Sequence record: PZ386952.1
DNA length: 61,166 nt
Strand: one strand, 5' to 3'
Origin: a phage
The notes under the pieces are model-generated. The model worked only from the letters and a program-made list of their open reading frames with translations. It was not told the origin of the DNA and searched no databases. Below are positions 14,210 through 61,166 of the stretch, piece after piece (within the stretch, counting starts at the first letter, position 1; each line of letters starts with the position of its first letter). A program made the position numbers and the translations under genes.

Positions 14210-14618
14210 ATTGCCAGGCTGGCAAACACGTTTATTAACCACAGTAAAGGAGTTGTCATCGACTCCTTTTTCTTGGGGCGAAAACGATTGCTGTACATTT
14301 GCTGCTAAATGTGTTGATGCGCAGTATGGTACTAATATCTATGAACAAATAGCAGGCAGATATAGCACTGAACTTGGAAGCAAACGGTTTTCAATTGAAA
14401 AGGTTGGAACAGCTTACCTTCCAACATTGCTGGATGCTTACCTGAGCAAGCGGGTTGATAAAAACTTTGCGCAACGCGGCGATGTGGTTACATTTGAGGG
14501 AGCATTGGGCGTAACTGCTGGCATATTATGGACTGGATATGTATGGGCTATGGGTCCGAACGGTGTGGAAACTTTCCCGCTTAATAAGATCGAAATTACG
14601 GATATTTGGAGGGTCTAA
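14184..14618 (+). CDS. tail assembly protein, gpK-like with NlpC/P60-type Cys motif
   Basis: ORF-track start at 14034 has no RBS; ATG at 14184 has GGGGGAG RBS (alternative ATG at 14202); NDCCTF cysteine motif; synteny. Confidence 0.45.
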   Translation: MRQDSHMSKLPGWQTRLLTTVKELSSTPFSWGENDCCTFAAKCVDAQYGTNIYEQIAGRYSTELGSKRFSIEKVGTAYLPTLLDAYLSKRVDKNFAQRGDVVTFEGALGVTAGILWTGYVWAMGPNGVETFPLNKIEITDIWRV

Positions 14619-17269
14619 TGCCACCAGCAATAATTGGAGCAGCAATAGCTTTAGGCGCTTCCGCTGCCGCTGCGGCGGGGTGGATTGCTACGGGTGTAGC
14701 TTTAGCTATTGGTATGGCTGCAACCGCGGCAGGTGCTCTTCTAACTAAGACACCTAATACAAACTTTAATGCTTATAAAGGTCAACAAGAACGTAAGCAA
14801 GTTTTACGAGCAGCCGCAGCCCCGCGTACCGTAGTCTATGGGACAACCGTTGCTTCCGGCGTTATGGTGTTTGCGGAAGAGCAACCGGGCGATCAAGAAG
14901 AAGACGAATTGCTGCACATGGCTTTAGTTATAGCAGGACACCCTCTTGATGGTATTGGGGATATATGGCTTGGGGATGACCTTGTTCAAACGTTTGAGGA
15001 TTATGTTACTTGGGAGTTTCATAATGACCGTCAAACTGTAGATCCTTTCATGAAAAAGAATTGTCCTTCCTGGAAGGAGGATATGATTGGTAAAGGGATT
15101 GCATGGCTTCGCATTAGTTTTAAATTTAATGCGGAGAAATTCCCGTCAGGCTTACCAAACGTCAAAATGCTGAAACGTGGTCGCCGTATATACGATCCAC
15201 GTTCCGGACAAACTGTATTCAGCGATAACGCTGCATTAGTTATACTCGATTATTTCCGTACTTACCTAAAACGTAAAGACGAGAATATTAACTGGGATCA
15301 GTTTAAAGAAGCGGCTAACATCTGCGATGAATACGTTCCTAACGCTGATGGTTCTACTGAACAGCGTTATAGAATTAATGGTGAGTTTGAAGTAGATGAA
15401 GCCCCTTCTAAGATCCTGGATGCTATGCTACAAGCTTGCGGTGGCGAACTGACATATGTAGCAGGTAAACATGGCTTGCTTGTTGGTGCATATTACGGCC
15501 CAGCTACAATGACGCTTGATGAAAGCTGCATTGCTGGAGATATTAAAATTGTTCCGGAGACTTCTTACAAGGAGCGCACCAACACCATTACAGGGACATT
15601 TATCGACCCGAAGCAGAACTATGTTGAAGCTGACTTCCCTCCAGTTGTGGTTAAGGAATGGGTGGAAAAGGATGGCGGCGAAATAACTCAGGACATGGAT
15701 TTCCGTTTTGTTGCTAGCGAGTATCAAGCTCAACGTCTAGCTAATATTGTTTTACGTCGTAAACGTGTCGGACGTACAATTGAAATCCCTTGTAACATGA
15801 GGGGTTATAAGTTCCGCCCCGGAATGTATGTAAAAGTTACTATTACGCAAATCGGTATGAAGAATGTCGAAATGCGTGTCACCAAATGGTCGTTTAACCC
15901 TAAAGGCGGAGTTAACCTAACATTACGCCAGGACTTCCTGGAAATGTGGGACGATGTTATTGGTAAACCTATGGAGCGTCCGGACCTTGTAGACCTACCT
16001 ACTGGTGGCGTTGCTCAACCTCAAAACCTTCAGTATCAAATACTACAGATCAGCGATGTTGTACAGGGGGTTTTATCCTGGACCAATATGGGACAGGTTG
16101 CGTATAACCGCGTAGCCGTGCGACAGGGGGGTACAACCATTTGGACCGCACAAGTCCCAGGCCAAAGTGTTCGCGTTACTGGGTTGCTGCGGGGCGCGTA
16201 TACAGCACACGTTCAAGCTGTATCCTATAGCGGCGCGGTGTCACCGGAAGCTTATCTGGAATTTAATATTCAAGCGCCACCTCCGCCAACGTCTGTTGAA
16301 GTGCAACAGGGTTACTTTGCAATAACCTTAATTCCTAAGTCTTCAGATATTGCAAACGTTAGTACACAATATGACTTCTGGACTTCTGGTGAAACAAGAC
16401 TTTCTTCTGCTTCTACAGATGTCGTAGAGCGCGATGCAACTCGTAAAGGTATGGGTACAACCTGGACTTCGGAAGGTTTGAAGAATGACCACACTTATTA
16501 CTGGTATGTACGGACAATTAACGCGTTCGGATCGTCTGCATTCGTAGAAGTTGCTGCAACATGCTTCACAACTGCTACAGAGCTAATGCCACAGATTGAT
16601 GCAGAACTCAAAAAGACTGAAACGTTTAAAGAGCTTACTGCTGAAATTACTGGTGTTAAAGATGGTGTTACTCAGCTTAGTCAAACTGTAGTAGAAACCG
16701 AACAACGTTTAAGTCAAAGTATTAGCAGCGTTCAGGAAAGCTTAAATGATGTTAGCGCAACTGTACAGGAGACAAGTAAAGCAGTTGTTGATCTGGAAGG
16801 CAATGTTAACGCTCAATGGGGTGCTAAAGTACAGGTTGATAATAAGGGGCAAAAATACGTTGCTGGTATCCAGTTAGGTATGGAGGGCTCCGGTGGTGCT
16901 GTTCAATCTTACTTCATGGTGAGTGCAAACAACTTTGCTGTTTATAACCCGACAAACAGTGTAGCTGAATTAGCCTTTGTGGTTAAGAACGGTCAGGTGT
17001 TCATGAAAGCTGCATTTATCGAAAACGGATCTATTGATAACGCTAAGATTGGTAACTATATTCAGTCCAACAACTATGTAAGCGGTTCTTCTGGCTGGAG
17101 GATTACTAAGGACGGGGCCTCGGAGTTTAATAATGTTGTCGTCAGAGGTGAGATACATGCAGCGGTTGGTAAATTTGGATTCGACGGGAATGGAGGTATA
17201 ACCATCAATAGTAACGGAATTACCGTCCCATTATCGGGCGGAGGTAAAGTTGTAGTTGGTAGATGGTAA
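14618..17269 (+). CDS. tail tip / host specificity protein (gpI-C-terminus-like N-terminus fused to gpJ-like)
   Basis: ATG at 14618 with GGAGGG RBS (track start 14606 is in frame); Gly/Ala-rich hydrophobic N-terminus then large beta-rich body; 883 aa. Confidence 0.6.
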   Translation: MPPAIIGAAIALGASAAAAAGWIATGVALAIGMAATAAGALLTKTPNTNFNAYKGQQERKQVLRAAAAPRTVVYGTTVASGVMVFAEEQPGDQEEDELLHMALVIAGHPLDGIGDIWLGDDLVQTFEDYVTWEFHNDRQTVDPFMKKNCPSWKEDMIGKGIAWLRISFKFNAEKFPSGLPNVKMLKRGRRIYDPRSGQTVFSDNAALVILDYFRTYLKRKDENINWDQFKEAANICDEYVPNADGSTEQRYRINGEFEVDEAPSKILDAMLQACGGELTYVAGKHGLLVGAYYGPATMTLDESCIAGDIKIVPETSYKERTNTITGTFIDPKQNYVEADFPPVVVKEWVEKDGGEITQDMDFRFVASEYQAQRLANIVLRRKRVGRTIEIPCNMRGYKFRPGMYVKVTITQIGMKNVEMRVTKWSFNPKGGVNLTLRQDFLEMWDDVIGKPMERPDLVDLPTGGVAQPQNLQYQILQISDVVQGVLSWTNMGQVAYNRVAVRQGGTTIWTAQVPGQSVRVTGLLRGAYTAHVQAVSYSGAVSPEAYLEFNIQAPPPPTSVEVQQGYFAITLIPKSSDIANVSTQYDFWTSGETRLSSASTDVVERDATRKGMGTTWTSEGLKNDHTYYWYVRTINAFGSSAFVEVAATCFTTATELMPQIDAELKKTETFKELTAEITGVKDGVTQLSQTVVETEQRLSQSISSVQESLNDVSATVQETSKAVVDLEGNVNAQWGAKVQVDNKGQKYVAGIQLGMEGSGGAVQSYFMVSANNFAVYNPTNSVAELAFVVKNGQVFMKAAFIENGSIDNAKIGNYIQSNNYVSGSSGWRITKDGASEFNNVVVRGEIHAAVGKFGFDGNGGITINSNGITVPLSGGGKVVVGRW

Positions 17270-17272
17270 CAA

Positions 17273-17290
17273 AAGGGGCGAAAGCCCCTT
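17273..17290. terminator. bidirectional stem-loop between convergent genes
   Basis: AAGGGGC-GAAA-GCCCCTT perfect hairpin at junction of + strand tail tip gene and - strand ORF. Confidence 0.55.
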
Positions 17291-18270
17291 TAATACATAT
17301 TTGGTAATGCGATAATTGGTGTCGGGATAACAATATTTCTTTCAGGTGCTGTTAGGGAGCCTAAGCTGTAGTTCCCTATCCGCTGATTTCTTTCAGCGCG
17401 TACTTTATTGTTATACATATGAACACCATTATAACGCACATTGTGATAACCGCCTGTATTAATTGTCCTCATTCCGTAGAACCCAAGTTGAATTAATCTA
17501 TCGCCAATATCCTGATCACTTGGTGTCAAAGTTAAAGTTTTATCAAATAAGAAAGGTTTCTTTACTGTGGAGAACGTAACCTGACCAGCGTTATTTGTCA
17601 TTGTAATACCGTCGCCCGGAGTTGGTGGGGTATTATTAAATATCACCAGCTCCATTGTTACACTAGCCGAAACATCATCCGTCCCAGAATAGGAAGAGTT
17701 TCTGACAATTATATTATTACCGTCAAACCCAACGGATATTCCGTTAGCATTCCATCTTGCAAAAGGGATACCCGATACTGGAAGTTGCATACTTCCGTTA
17801 ACTGTAACAGTACCAGCATACTGACAAGTCATTAATTTTGCATTATTTGAAATAGCTGTGAAATCCGTAGAGTTTGACACATACAGACCCGTGTTATATG
17901 TAGAAGCAGGTAATACTTCCATAATAGATCCTGCCCATTGTGGGAGTTTTCCAGTATACCCAAAAGGATTACCACCCCTTAAAATAACACCAGAATTACC
18001 ATTCCTGGAGATGGAGGAGATGTAGAAAGGTGAAGGGACTACAAGCCCCTGATCGTATACTTCGATAATTTCAACAGGTTTAGTAGGAATTACAAAAACT
18101 TCAGAAGCTTGGGTAAGAGTTGTATTAATTGTTAAAGTTTGATCAGACTGACAACGCTGATTAAAGTTAGCACAAAAAGATAAAGCCCGTAGACCTGACG
18201 TTATTTGCATTGCAGGTCTACCGTCATTGTAGTTTATGTAAATACCTTCAGGCATCATAGCCTCCAACAA
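17290..18270 (-). CDS. hypothetical beta-rich protein, candidate receptor-binding / host-range protein
   Basis: 326-aa Ser/Thr/Asn/Gly-rich ORF on the opposite strand inside the tail module; no signal peptide or lipobox. Confidence 0.4.
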   Translation of the reverse strand: MLEAMMPEGIYINYNDGRPAMQITSGLRALSFCANFNQRCQSDQTLTINTTLTQASEVFVIPTKPVEIIEVYDQGLVVPSPFYISSISRNGNSGVILRGGNPFGYTGKLPQWAGSIMEVLPASTYNTGLYVSNSTDFTAISNNAKLMTCQYAGTVTVNGSMQLPVSGIPFARWNANGISVGFDGNNIIVRNSSYSGTDDVSASVTMELVIFNNTPPTPGDGITMTNNAGQVTFSTVKKPFLFDKTLTLTPSDQDIGDRLIQLGFYGMRTINTGGYHNVRYNGVHMYNNKVRAERNQRIGNYSLGSLTAPERNIVIPTPIIALPNMY

Positions 18271-18381
18271 TGTGGTTAAAGATGATAGACAATATTGTTT
18301 TATATTCTAATTTAATTTACCATATTTGTATGCCATGGTGCATCCATTAATTGATCAACTCTGCAAGACAAGAGGTAAAAA

Positions 18382-21300
18382 ATGGCAACTCGTTTATATG
18401 GTGTTTTGCTTGACGGCTTAAAAAAACCAATCGTTAATGCAACAGTCGTTCTCTTAGCAAAAGGAAACACGATAACCGTCCTTAACGGTAGCGAAGCAAT
18501 CTTTAAGACCGACGCTCAGGGTGCGTACAATGTTACTGTGCAATCAGGATACTATAAAGTAATTATAGGTCCACAAGGTACTGAACCTTATAAAGCTGGG
18601 GAAATTGCAATATATGCTGATAGTCAGGAAGGGTCGCTTAACAATTATTTAGTTAACTGGGCGGAAGAAGATCTAACACCTGAAGTTATTAAACAAGTCA
18701 AAGAGCTTGTAGCGGTTTCAGAACAGTATTCGCTTCAAGCTGGAAGGTCAGCTGCCGCTGCACAAGCGGATGCTACAGATGCACGCAATAGTAAAGCTTC
18801 CGCTGCCCAATCTGCCGCAGATGCACTTGTGTATAAAAATGATTCCAAAGCTAATGCTGACGCCGCTAAACAAGCACAAGCTGGGGCTGCTGGGTCTGCT
18901 AATACCGCTAACGCCGCTGTCGCCACAATACGGGCTATACAACAGGATGTTACAGCATCCAAAGACCGAGCAATAACTGCTGAAACCAATGCAAAAGCTA
19001 GTCAAGATGCGTCTGCAAACTCAGCCGGGGCAGCAAAAGTATCGGAAACCAACGCAAAGTCCAGTGAAACTAAAGCTAAAGAGTACATGCAAACGGCGCA
19101 AAGCCTTGCCAGCCCTTTGACGCAATACAATTGGCCCGTTGAAACCAGCAATAAAGACGCTTACGTTAAGATTGCTAAACTTAGCGACCCAGGGGCATCA
19201 AGCTGCCACTTAACGCTAATGGTTACAAATGGTGGCGGCTACGGTGTAACTTACGGGAATATTGACTTTATAGAGATCTCCGCTCGCGGTCTTAACAGTA
19301 CAGGTGAAATAACCAGCGAAAACGTAATTAAGTTTTTAAGTGTTCGCCGCCTCGGTTCACCAAGCCTTTCCAATAGTAGTCAAATTAATTATGGCCTGGT
19401 AGGAGGTGATGGTTATTTTGAGGTATGGTGTTATCAGCGAACATTTATTAAAGAGACAAAGGTAGCTGTGCTGGCGCAGACTGATAAAAACGTGGAGTTA
19501 TACATTCCCGAAGGATTTGTTACTCAAACCGACGCACCCGCTGGATATATAGAAAGCAAGGCAAGGAGGATTTACGACGAGGGAAACAAACCTACTAAGG
19601 AAGATGTTGGCCTTTCCAATGCTCTACTAAAAGGTGATTTTGGTCTTGGTGGTAGCGGGTCAGTAATAAGCGGTAAGATGAGCGATGCTGAGCTATTACA
19701 ATACCTGCGTAGTAGAGGAGGTCAATTCTGGCGCAGTGATAAGCCGACCGGAAGCACGGCGACCATTTATAGCCACGGTTCGGGTATATTCTCGCGTTGC
19801 GGCGATACGTGGTCAGCGATCAATATCGACTACTCAACCGGTAAAGTCAAGGTTTACGCTGGTAACGACAATGGACTTAACTCTGGTAATTTTTCCATCA
19901 ACGAGCTATACGGAACTAAAAATAAGCCGTCGAAATCGGATGTTGGACTTAGCAACGTAACTAACGATACGCAGGTTAGAAAATCCGGCGATGCTATGTC
20001 AGGTGACTTGATAATCCAAAAAGGTACACCTTCACTCTACCTGCGGTCAAAAAGTGGAACCGCCCATGTATGGTTCCAAAATGAGGATCAGTCGGAACGC
20101 GGCGTTATTTGGGCGCCTACAAATACTGCCTCGCTTGGTGAGATCCGCATTCGGGCAAAGACCGCTGACGGCACGGCTACCGGTGATTTTGTTGTTCGTC
20201 ATGATGGACGAATCGAAGCGAAAGACGCAAAGATCAGCTATAAGGTGTCCTCTCGTACTGCTGAGTTCGCCAACGACGACACGAACACGATGGTGAACAC
20301 GTTAAAAATCATCGGTAAACAGCATACGCCGTTACTTTTAACGCGTACCGGTTATTCTGAAAACCTATCCATTGGTTTTAAGGTTGACAACGTTGTCCAA
20401 AAATATCTCGGAATTAATGGCAGTGGAGATCTGTGTTTTGGTGATTATGCTGATCAAAAAACAAACAGTAGAGTAATTACACAAGCAATACTAGATAGCG
20501 GGGTAACCGCCAGTTCATTAACCACACAGAAGGTTATTCTTGGTAATGTTACTCTTCGACAAATAAACGAGGACGAAGGTACGGGGATAGGTGTTGTTTT
20601 TGATGGTTCTAACTCTACTGAAAACACCTTCGGAATAGTTAATACTGGTGGCGGTTCGGCTGTTTTTCACAATTATGCTAAACCAGCTGATTCCTCCGCT
20701 GTTAATACGGGCGTTCTGATAGGGGGCTATGGATCAAGACCGTGGACAGGTAGCACCTATACAGAACACGGTAATGTGTCACAACACTTTCTTATGGATG
20801 GTGTAGCTTCTGCAACTAACCACGGTGGTTGGTTCCGTTTGTTAACCACACCATTAAATGCGACCGTAGACGAGCGTCGACAGACATTTGCTACAAGTAA
20901 TAATGGCGACCTTTATATAGGTTACGATGTACCTATGGGGCTGTACAAGCTGGATGCTGCAAATTACAACGGCTTGGACATATTAAACGGTCGCGGTCTT
21001 AAGCAAGTAAATAACACCGCTAATGAAATAGCCTTAATCACTCCACGAAACGGGGCAACAGCTTATCTAAATTTCAGAGGTGTTGCTTTTGATGGCACAA
21101 TGACTGGAACTAAGGGTGCAACTCAGCAGGGTGACAACTTGTGGTTATCTTTTGCAGGACATGATGGTGTAAAATTCACCGGAGCGGCGGCTGGTATCAG
21201 AATACAGGCTTCAACTGGTTGGAGCACGACCTCAACTCAATGCGGGATAACATTTGCAACAACTGCTCAAGGGAGCACAAAAAGAACGGATAGATGGGCA

Positions 21301-21798
21301 ATAACAAGTGACGGCACTCTATCACCTGCACAAGATAATACTTACGCAATTGGTAGTTCTGTTAGCCGCGCTACGTCAATCTTTGCAACTAATGGTGCAA
21401 TACAGACATCAGATGCAAGAATGAAAACAGATGTCCGAAAAATGTCAGACGCCGAACTTTCAGCCGCTAAAGATATAGCCAGAGAGTTTGGCTTCTTTCA
21501 GTGGATTGAAAGAGTTAAAACGGAGGGTGACGCTGCAAGGTGGCACGCAGGTATAACAGTCCAACGCGTCATTAGTATTATGACTTCTTACGGCTTAGAC
21601 CCAATGGCGTATGGATTTGTCTGTTATGATTCTTGGGAAGAACAGGAAATTGTATCTGTAGACCCAGATAATCAATCGAAGACTATCACAAAAATAGAAG
21701 CAGGGGATAGATATAGCTTACGTTATTCAGAACTTAGCATTTTCATAGCCAGAGGGTTGGAACAGAGGATTTCGGAGTTGGAGGACAAACTTTTGTAA
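18382..21798 (+). CDS. long tail fiber with C-terminal intramolecular chaperone (peptidase S74-like) domain
   Basis: 1138 aa; Ala-rich repeat segment near N-terminus; C-terminal ~130 aa resemble the auto-cleaving chaperone domain of T5 L-shaped fiber / endosialidases (TSDARMKTDV junction). Confidence 0.75.
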   Translation: MATRLYGVLLDGLKKPIVNATVVLLAKGNTITVLNGSEAIFKTDAQGAYNVTVQSGYYKVIIGPQGTEPYKAGEIAIYADSQEGSLNNYLVNWAEEDLTPEVIKQVKELVAVSEQYSLQAGRSAAAAQADATDARNSKASAAQSAADALVYKNDSKANADAAKQAQAGAAGSANTANAAVATIRAIQQDVTASKDRAITAETNAKASQDASANSAGAAKVSETNAKSSETKAKEYMQTAQSLASPLTQYNWPVETSNKDAYVKIAKLSDPGASSCHLTLMVTNGGGYGVTYGNIDFIEISARGLNSTGEITSENVIKFLSVRRLGSPSLSNSSQINYGLVGGDGYFEVWCYQRTFIKETKVAVLAQTDKNVELYIPEGFVTQTDAPAGYIESKARRIYDEGNKPTKEDVGLSNALLKGDFGLGGSGSVISGKMSDAELLQYLRSRGGQFWRSDKPTGSTATIYSHGSGIFSRCGDTWSAINIDYSTGKVKVYAGNDNGLNSGNFSINELYGTKNKPSKSDVGLSNVTNDTQVRKSGDAMSGDLIIQKGTPSLYLRSKSGTAHVWFQNEDQSERGVIWAPTNTASLGEIRIRAKTADGTATGDFVVRHDGRIEAKDAKISYKVSSRTAEFANDDTNTMVNTLKIIGKQHTPLLLTRTGYSENLSIGFKVDNVVQKYLGINGSGDLCFGDYADQKTNSRVITQAILDSGVTASSLTTQKVILGNVTLRQINEDEGTGIGVVFDGSNSTENTFGIVNTGGGSAVFHNYAKPADSSAVNTGVLIGGYGSRPWTGSTYTEHGNVSQHFLMDGVASATNHGGWFRLLTTPLNATVDERRQTFATSNNGDLYIGYDVPMGLYKLDAANYNGLDILNGRGLKQVNNTANEIALITPRNGATAYLNFRGVAFDGTMTGTKGATQQGDNLWLSFAGHDGVKFTGAAAGIRIQASTGWSTTSTQCGITFATTAQGSTKRTDRWAITSDGTLSPAQDNTYAIGSSVSRATSIFATNGAIQTSDARMKTDVRKMSDAELSAAKDIAREFGFFQWIERVKTEGDAARWHAGITVQRVISIMTSYGLDPMAYGFVCYDSWEEQEIVSVDPDNQSKTITKIEAGDRYSLRYSELSIFIARGLEQRISELEDKLL

Positions 21799-23119: not shown

Positions 23120-23650
23120 ATGCAAAACGTAAACGCAGGAATGGGCGTAACCCAGTTCAACGGGATGAAACCGAAAAACTCCATCAACATGGGCGGTGTT
23201 GTTTGGACGTTACGTCGGGACGCTACCGATTCAACTACCATGTTCCCACACCAGAAGGTTAGCTGGCTTAATGCTGGCTGTGAACCTATGGGTGATGGAA
23301 GGGTTCATTACTGTTGGATTATGGGAGTGATACCGCCTACGCCGGGCACTATCGAACGACCCGTGAATGTGATGTATGTCGGCTTCCACCAGTTCAAGAT
23401 TACAATTGCCCCAAACTCCATTAGTCAGTCGGATCTTGATCGTATGCACGTTTACGTCAGCGATGGTACAGACTTCGCAGGGGATTTTATTAATAAGTTT
23501 CTTGGCGTGCAACCGGAGCAACCTGTAGAAGCCCGCGAACATATTAGTCCGTGGCCGCCGATGATTGACCAGGAAGTGTTGCAGCCGAAGACCGCTCAAA
23601 CGGTCCCTCAGAAACCGGAGCAGAAGGTAAAACCAAATGACGAAGAATGA
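23120..23650 (+). CDS. hypothetical protein
   Basis: 176-aa ORF with RBS GGAAG; no motif recognised. Confidence 0.4.
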   Translation: MQNVNAGMGVTQFNGMKPKNSINMGGVVWTLRRDATDSTTMFPHQKVSWLNAGCEPMGDGRVHYCWIMGVIPPTPGTIERPVNVMYVGFHQFKITIAPNSISQSDLDRMHVYVSDGTDFAGDFINKFLGVQPEQPVEAREHISPWPPMIDQEVLQPKTAQTVPQKPEQKVKPNDEE

Positions 23651-25112: not shown

Positions 25113-25406
25113 CTAGCCCCCAAAAGTACCCCTATGATCAAGGGTTCTAATGCGCTGCTCCAGCCAACGTGCGTTCTTTTCAAAATGTTTATTGGTACGC
25201 GCTGCTTTGCACGCATCAATAATACCTAACTCACATCCAAGCTGCGTTTGGCCCATTACGTAAGAATGGGTTAACATGCTGGATACAAGCTCTTCACATT
25301 GTAACTTAATAGGATGGTCTTGGCATAGTTTCTTTGCTGCATCTTTTAAATCCACAGCTTGGGCACCAGGAGCTATCAGTAAAGTTACGAGTAATAAACG
25401 TTTCAT
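25113..25406 (-). CDS. secreted Cys-containing protein (signal peptide)
   Basis: N-terminal MKRLLLVTLLIAPGAQA signal-like sequence; 4 Cys. Confidence 0.45.
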   Translation of the reverse strand: MKRLLLVTLLIAPGAQAVDLKDAAKKLCQDHPIKLQCEELVSSMLTHSYVMGQTQLGCELGIIDACKAARTNKHFEKNARWLEQRIRTLDHRGTFGG

Positions 25407-25747
25407 TATGCTTTTCCTTTACGGCATAAGGCCTGAAGTTCCAGAAGCGCATCAATGTCTTCCTGTGGAGTTACACCAACGCGAATTGGATATTTAGTGC
25501 GACATTGATTGCCAACTTCAACAGTGTGGTTAATGTAGCCGTAAACACATCCACCAATAACAGTGAAGATAAGCGCAACAATCATTGTAAGGTATTTACC
25601 TTGTTTGCGTTCTTCATTTTGTTTATTAAGCTGACGGTTAAGTTCCACCGCGTCGATTTTACCTTTGTTGTAATCGTCTACTAAGCTCATTTTGCATCTC
25701 CTCTTGTTGTATGCATATATTAAAACAGACCCGCGAAGGGTCTGCAA
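25406..25747 (-). CDS. membrane protein
   Basis: 113 aa with one strong transmembrane helix. Confidence 0.4.
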   Translation of the reverse strand: MQTLRGSVLIYAYNKRRCKMSLVDDYNKGKIDAVELNRQLNKQNEERKQGKYLTMIVALIFTVIGGCVYGYINHTVEVGNQCRTKYPIRVGVTPQEDIDALLELQALCRKGKA

Positions 25748-60631: not shown

Positions 60632-61166
60632 ATGAACGGGGCAAGTCAAGAGCAATATGATCGTGACTGGACGAATTACATCCAGTATGCAAATAGCTTG
60701 TCCGCTGAAGAGATGGCAATACGTGACAAAGTTGTTGCTGAGTACATGTTCGACTACAATTGGACTAACGCTTGCATGAGATGCGGGTTCAATGCTATGT
60801 TTGCACAGGAGCTTGGCCAACGCTTTGCCACGGACTGTTATGTTCGATGGAAGCTCAAGGAGATTGAAAGATCCCGTGTTCAACGTACTTCTGAGCAAGC
60901 TAACATTGAAGCAGACCTTGAGCGTCAGCATATCATTGAAGCATTAAAACGTGAAGCTCATTATACAGGACCGGGATCTTCTCAAGCTGCTAGAGTGGCT
61001 GCATTGGGCAAGCTTGCACAAATTTATGATTTGGATGCTCCCAAGAAGGCTAAAATTGATGTTACTAACAGAGGCGGCGTAATGATAGTCCCTGCTGTAG
61101 CAAATATTGACGAATGGGAAAAAACTGCATCCGAGTCTCAACAACGACTAGTTAAAGAGACTGAAG
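60632..61166 (+). CDS. terminase small subunit candidate (3' partial, runs off window)
   Basis: ATG with AAGAAAGGGGG RBS; 178 codons open to the window end; not in ORF track; sits just before terminase large subunit if the molecule is circular. Confidence 0.45.
   Translation, partial: MNGASQEQYDRDWTNYIQYANSLSAEEMAIRDKVVAEYMFDYNWTNACMRCGFNAMFAQELGQRFATDCYVRWKLKEIERSRVQRTSEQANIEADLERQHIIEALKREAHYTGPGSSQAARVAALGKLAQIYDLDAPKKAKIDVTNRGGVMIVPAVANIDEWEKTASESQQRLVKETE

Follow-up and report, generated by a model that had tools for sequence, protein, structure and literature searches.

A reverse-strand gene beside the tail-tip gene of a Seuratvirus-like siphophage is likely to encode an LptD-type receptor-binding protein

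What is a single gene, read against all of its neighbours, doing in the middle of a phage tail module? The window analysed here, a stretch of 61,166 nucleotides (record PZ386952.1), is a complete genome of ~61.2 kb, rotated so that base 1 is the first base of the TerL start codon (TerL region 1-1560). The window ends within the TerS gene (60632-61165), whose translated part shares 98.9% identity with the TerS of VogelGryff. The first 25 kb show ~92-93% DNA identity to CAjan-like Seuratvirus phages (Queuovirinae), and on these sequence grounds the phage is a Seuratvirus-like siphophage of the virulent Queuovirinae type. We assign the gene in question, at 17290..18255 on the minus strand, as the dedicated receptor-binding protein (RBP) of the central tail fibre, of the LptD-binding type, with a probability of a little under nine in ten. 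This assignment rests on the open reading frame, homology and an AF2 structural model, and agrees with the receptor-binding or host-range role that a preliminary description of this DNA had put forward.

The longest open reading frame at the locus, 17290..18270 on the minus strand, encodes 326 aa from a TTG at 18270, as that description had stated. This TTG is probably not used. The gene almost certainly begins at the ATG at 18255, the second ATG of the frame, which would give a protein of 321 aa, because a GGAGG Shine-Dalgarno motif read from the sequence (18261..18265, minus strand) lies 5 nt upstream and because relatives carry that ATG only, with GGAG and the single ATG both kept. The claim that this is the sole minus-strand gene of the structural block holds: within 1-24000, every other minus-strand reading frame of at least 100 aa is nested in a longer plus-strand frame, and in the annotated VogelGryff genome no CDS other than the homologue lies on the minus strand from TerS to position 23233. 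GC content is 38.8% in the gene and 45.6% in the structural block. The protein is rich in Ser, Thr, Asn and Gly (N+G+T+S make up 36.3%), its N-terminus (MPEGIYINYNDGRP) is polar, and neither a signal peptide nor a transmembrane segment was found in it, the highest 19-residue Kyte-Doolittle mean being 0.84. Both the composition and the missing signal peptide had been noted before.

The family to which the protein belongs, with members of about 310-321 aa, is clear. Pfam DUF6453 (PF20051) matches residues 5-298 over profile positions 1-290 of 291 (E 4.6e-124), and a PDB sequence search with the 322-aa protein that starts at the first ATG (18258) gave a sole match, 9rpt_C/9rpw/9rqi (E 3.3e-133, residues 3-322), the structures of the Oekolampad (Bas18) RBP. 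Sequence identity is 88.5% to the homologue in FritzHoffmann (Bas20, bas20_0020), the closest phage record compared, 85.4% to that of PLYYY01, 82.6% to that of VogelGryff (Bas25, bas25_0021), ~66% to each of those from ChristophMerian (Bas19), SD04 and SA126VB, 62.9% over the full length to the Oekolampad RBP, and 39% to the TheodorHerzl (Bas14) protein and Rtp44; one metagenomic protein is 98% identical. The best conserved part of the family is the N-terminal ~40 aa.

An AF2 model built from 50 family members (pLDDT 86.9, pTM 0.86) contains 26 strands and no helix, in keeping with the all-beta character anticipated earlier, and reproduces the two-sandwich all-beta fold of the solved Oekolampad RBP. 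The comparison of a predicted structure with known receptor-binding proteins, which had been suggested as a check, gave a single result: at a Foldseek cut-off of E<=0.001, 9rpt_C alone among PDB entries passes (E 1.1e-29, TM 0.95 on target, rmsd 2.2 A).

Experimental work on these relatives ties the family to a receptor. No receptor could be assigned by single-gene knockouts to Bas01, 02, 14, 18, 19, 20 and 25, but mutants resistant to Bas14, 18, 19, 20 and 25 carried in-frame lptD deletions, and for Bas25 the dependence on LptD was backed by complementation (Maffei et al., PLoS Biol 2021, PMC8594841). Bas20 and Bas25 are blocked by the lptD loop deletions delta Y658-Y678::H and delta L394-V396::Y. 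That the locus downstream of gpJ is a variable "RBP locus" is also established (PMC8594841; 2026 preprint). The 2026 preprint, covering 255 phages, distinguishes four families at this hypervariable locus, defined at >30% identity and each with one receptor (FhuA, BtuB, LptD or YncD), and reports that the C-terminal features of GpJ are receptor-specific. Purified Oekolampad RBP is soluble and binds LptDE, the lipopolysaccharide translocon, on its extracellular side. By cryo-EM (PDB 9RPT) it sits deep inside LptDE, in the lumen of an LptD barrel whose open state had not been seen before (Dunbar et al., PNAS 2025, PMC12685063). The interface covers ~1,700 A^2, with 20 hydrogen bonds, mostly to the extracellular LptD loops EL3-5 and EL11; among the contacts, Gln299 hydrogen-bonds LptD Ser350 (PMC12685063). 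Black et al. modelled several such RBPs, that of Bas20 included, as two lectin-like beta-sandwiches with a loop-bearing tip at one end and a conserved base carrying the N-terminus at the other, and proposed the N-terminal base as the side of tail attachment (PMC13035648). Virion proteomics of Rtp44-type proteins was looked for in the literature, with no usable result.

Given the homology to the Oekolampad RBP, the LptD dependence of Bas20 and Bas25 and the variable nature of the locus, we hold with high confidence the prediction that LptD is the receptor of this phage. Locus, receptor and structure of its RBP family have already been published (genetics in 2021, structure in 2025), and with this new member the window thus adds an allele rather than a concept. 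What it does offer is a confident receptor prediction from sequence alone, together with a correction of misleading database labels. LptD-binding RBP alleles should be useful for host-range engineering and phage steering, because LptD is essential and conserved.

The arrangement of genes around the RBP is that of its LptD-type relatives. Upstream on the plus strand lies a J-like tail-tip gene of ~883 aa, with a probable extent of 14618..17269 and Pfam Phage_Tail_Tip and Ig_J domains (PF09327, PF24489); the RBP gene follows in reverse orientation, its stop codon starting 21 nt past the J stop at 17269; and a lateral tail-fibre gene of 1138 aa comes next on the plus strand (18382..21798), with an N-terminal prophage tail-fibre domain and a C-terminal S74 intramolecular chaperone (Pfam). 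The lateral tail-fibre gene is a divergently transcribed neighbour and stands outside the RBP module proper. The same order of J, a reverse-strand gene of 966 bp and a lateral tail fibre is found in Bas19, Bas20, Bas25, SD04 and SA126VB, and an opposite-strand gene of ~930-966 bp directly downstream of the gpJ homologue also occurs in Bas14, 18, 19, 20, 25 and Rtp. The loci of Bas20 and Bas25 correspond to that of the window element by element, with J, a terminator hairpin, the reverse RBP gene, a conserved intergenic region of ~120 bp and the lateral tail fibre. In Oekolampad, a Dhillonvirus, the RBP (Bas18_0025; 9RPT, 9RPW, 9RQI) shares the DUF6453 family, length and fold of the window protein, its gene likewise lies on the reverse strand right after a J-like gene, and the C-terminal tails of the two J proteins are of one type; several surface loops differ, the Gln299 loop among them. 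Rtp, of the Drexlerviridae, carries a member of the same family, Rtp44, whose gene likewise follows rtp43, the J homologue of that phage.

Downstream of the tail fibre, the ORF at 21798-22664 matches phrog_9288 (function unassigned) from residue 55 only, so its true start is probably internal. The encoded sequence is rich in Gly and Trp over an N-terminal stretch and closes with PTPPTPPTGCC, and it is unlike the "lateral tail fiber chaperone" annotated at that position in VogelGryff.

A detailed comparison of the J proteins enabled us to propose how the RBP is held on the tail. The C-terminal tail of J, encoded at 17135..17269 on the plus strand and ending GKFGFDGNGGITINSNGITVPLSGGGKVVVGRW, follows the type of RBP rather than the rest of J. 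Its last 40 aa are 50-95% identical to those of J proteins from LptD-type phages (Queuovirinae, Dhillonvirus and Drexlerviridae), whereas the 200 aa before these are only 27-62% identical in the same phages; against the J of CAjan the relationship is reversed, with 37.5% identity over the last 40 aa and 88.5% over the preceding 200 aa. DNA similarity to CAjan ends at ~17136. Across three phage taxa, RBP type and the final ~40 residues of J vary together, independently of the remainder of the protein. CAjan itself, of the same genus and ~92% identical across the structural block, has a J of 1040 aa with a C-terminal extension of ~170 aa, and an unrelated 77-aa lipoprotein occupies the locus. 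The C-terminal tail of J is therefore a probable docking site for the RBP, as judged from this covariation.

The RBP gene also has a history of its own. In the phage collection its locus is nearest to that of PLYYY01, a Seuratvirus, at 83.5% DNA identity across the locus, and the closest relatives of the RBP locus (PLYYY01 and the Nonagvirus FritzHoffmann) differ from the phages that come closest in the structural block. As the backbone is that of a CAjan-like Seuratvirus and the RBP is closest to that of the Nonagvirus Bas20, the genome is a mosaic. The covariation of the J tail, the different module in CAjan, and a GC content and nearest relatives that deviate from those of the block together support the view that the RBP gene and the J C-terminal tail form an exchangeable host-range cassette.

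The two genes of this cassette meet at a hairpin with an 8-bp stem (AAAGGGGC/GCCCCTTT) and a GAAA loop, at 17272..17291, which begins 2 nt past the J stop codon and overlaps the minus-strand RBP stop codon. A stem-loop folding on both strands had been described at 17273-17290; it exists, with its coordinates shifted by one base. Its 56-nt context has a folding energy of -20.9 kcal/mol (z -4.4) on the plus strand and -14.3 kcal/mol (z -3.1) on the minus strand, and none of 200 shuffles folded equally well on either strand. Six relatives from three taxa have a stem-loop in the same place with different stem sequences, and the SA126VB record lists a terminator there for both strands. From its fold energy, conserved position and annotation in SA126VB, the hairpin is probably a convergent bidirectional terminator common to the J and RBP genes. 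A simple terminator scan missed it, probably since the T-run was counted into the stem.

At its other end the RBP gene is separated from the tail-fibre start by a divergent intergenic region of 126 bp, which contains a nearly invariant block of ~65-70 nt (18271..18336). This block is near-identical in the six Nonagvirus and Seuratvirus genomes of the Queuovirinae that were compared, against 70-87% identity in the flanking coding DNA, and probably holds back-to-back promoters or a regulator site. A consensus promoter scan of the intergenic region found no strong sigma-70 site for the RBP gene. On the RBP strand the block includes CATACA-N17-TAGAAT (-35 at 18332-18327, -10 at 18309-18304), which by virtue of its conservation we put forward as a weak candidate promoter for the RBP gene, and SA126VB annotates a promoter on the tail-fibre strand of the same region.

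These elements most likely act together as follows. Minus-strand transcription of the RBP gene would start late in the conserved intergenic region between the two divergent genes, and would end at the hairpin shared with J. The predicted product, a 321-aa all-beta protein without a signal peptide, would be carried in the virion at the tail tip, with its conserved N-terminal base docked non-covalently on the matching C-terminal tail of J. Like the 62.9%-identical Oekolampad RBP, it would then insert deeply into the LptD barrel, a terminal and irreversible step that would follow a first contact by the lateral fibres. Irreversible adsorption of this kind would in turn trigger DNA ejection.

A rival reading concerns the exact receptor that the allele recognises. 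Of the 37 residues that differ from Bas20, 28 fall in residues 170-196 and 258-303, and only three lie in the first 156. These regions include the loop equivalent to that of Oekolampad Gln299, placed from the main text of PMC12685063, which reads YSLGSLTAPERN in the window as against YSRQQFQMPGKN in Oekolampad; the variants of this loop are SLGSLTAPE in the window, HSPSLRPPE in Bas20 and SRQQFQMPG in Oekolampad. This concentration of changes in the C-terminal half, the divergence of a loop that matches an Oekolampad-LptD contact, and the spread of DUF6453 proteins over phages and prophages of Klebsiella, Citrobacter, Salmonella, Shigella and Sodalis could all be taken to mean that this RBP, though alike in fold and in its place on the tail, binds an outer-membrane protein other than LptD, or exclusively the LptD of some enterobacterium other than E. 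coli. We regard this as improbable. Family members at only 33-39% identity (Rtp44/Bas01 and Bas14) still use LptD, the two other variants of the loop, one shared by Bas20 and Bas25 and the other by Bas18 and Bas19, are both found in LptD-dependent phages, and neither Maffei et al. (PMC8594841) nor the 2026 preprint contains an exception to the rule of one family, one receptor. An LptD-binding RBP thus remains our preferred reading, within which the divergent loop region suggests that fine specificity, for instance for a certain LptD variant or host, may not be that of the tested relatives.

A second possibility is that the gene is a moron, as the preliminary description had also considered, or a membrane protein expressed for host benefit or exclusion, outside the virion. 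This is what the label of its family in PHROG implies (PHROG 1265, "membrane protein", category "moron, auxiliary metabolic gene and host takeover"), and the opposite strand, the separate terminator and the low GC content are all in line with it. However, the protein has no signal peptide or transmembrane segment, its purified homologue is a soluble receptor binder that attaches to LptDE on the extracellular side (PMC12685063), the locus tracks receptor specificity (PMC8594841; 2026 preprint), and a lysogenic-conversion moron makes little sense in a phage of the virulent Queuovirinae type. We therefore reject this reading as very improbable, and consider the PHROG 1265 label "membrane protein" wrong for the DUF6453 RBP family. 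Equally remote is a role in tail assembly or as a fibre chaperone that helps to build the tip, to which the position of the gene between two tail-fibre genes might point, as the homologue itself binds the receptor through a 1,700 A^2 interface seen in three PDB entries and the fold search gave no chaperone-like match.

Other labels of the family also lag behind the literature: Pfam lists DUF6453 as of unknown function, and relatives in GenBank are "hypothetical protein". DUF6453 homologues are present in chromosomes of Citrobacter, Salmonella and E. coli, presumably within prophages.

The preliminary description had drawn a parallel to T5-like phages. As an analogy of organisation, with a separate RBP encoded beside the tail-tip gene, this is apt, and T5 pb5 follows the same logic of a separate RBP at the tip of the central fibre that binds an outer-membrane protein. 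The likeness does not extend to descent: pb5 is absent from the PDB sequence search at E<=0.01 and from the best 50 Foldseek matches listed, and we dismiss homology to it, as neither sequence nor fold matches. The receptor of pb5 is FhuA rather than LptD, and T5 has a partner protein, Llp, which has no counterpart in the window. The J of lambda and the extended J of CAjan occupy the same tail position and act as terminal receptor binders, but in these the binder forms a C-terminal extension of J itself, while in the window it is a separate polypeptide.

One difference from related phages concerns superinfection exclusion. In Oekolampad, TheodorHerzl and Rtp, a gene for a lipoprotein of ~75 aa (Rtp45 family, Pfam PF24052) lies directly upstream of the RBP gene, in Oekolampad as Bas18_0026 within the RBP operon; Dhillonvirus and Rtp-like phages that have this RBP family always combine it with the lipoprotein. 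According to published work on Rtp45, this protein binds the periplasmic face of LptD, displaces loop EL4 and blocks RBP binding. No such gene occurs anywhere in the window. Searches by tblastn with SE_Oeko, the TheodorHerzl lipoprotein, Rtp45 and CAjan gp19 gave best E values of 1 or worse, an HMM built from four lipoprotein sequences reached a best E of 2.3 against all six-frame peptides of the genome, and two lipobox regex scans produced no credible lipoprotein ORF. One lipobox candidate, at 25406-25585, was discarded, being a segment from inside a 94-aa phrog_26834 protein. The 126-bp intergenic region is too short for an Rtp45-type gene. In this the window differs from Oekolampad and Rtp and resembles Bas20 and Bas25; no Rtp45-type gene is annotated at the RBP locus in the five Queuovirinae relatives with gene annotation there (Bas19, Bas20, Bas25, SD04 and SA126VB). 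The missing partner is the one mildly unexpected feature of the window's locus. Tentatively, and as a guess we would not press, LptD-type Queuovirinae without Rtp45 might employ an unrelated factor, so far unrecognised, that keeps their progeny from binding LptD on cell debris, or dispense with receptor masking; as a separate conjecture, put forward just as cautiously, the clustered substitutions in the RBP might mark a shifted specificity for LptD allele or host.

Components of the RBP-lipoprotein pair also surfaced elsewhere. The Gordonclarkvirinae podophage EK010 encodes a DUF6453 protein, ORF100 (L012:2159-3193), beside its tail-fibre gene, with a Pfam E of 3.6e-26 and an hhalign probability of 98.7% against the RBP family, and phage EP335 of the same subfamily carries a PF24052 lipoprotein, ORF106 (L013:2468-2749), among its early genes (E 3.5e-36). 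These sequence matches hint that O-antigen-dependent Gordonclarkvirinae podophages may also engage LptD. Finally, two records labelled "Campylobacter phage", MG065671 (A120) and MG065675 (A118), encode an RBP that is 80% identical and an Rtp45-type lipoprotein that is 60% identical; as both proteins are typical of coliphages, the host label of these two phages looks doubtful.
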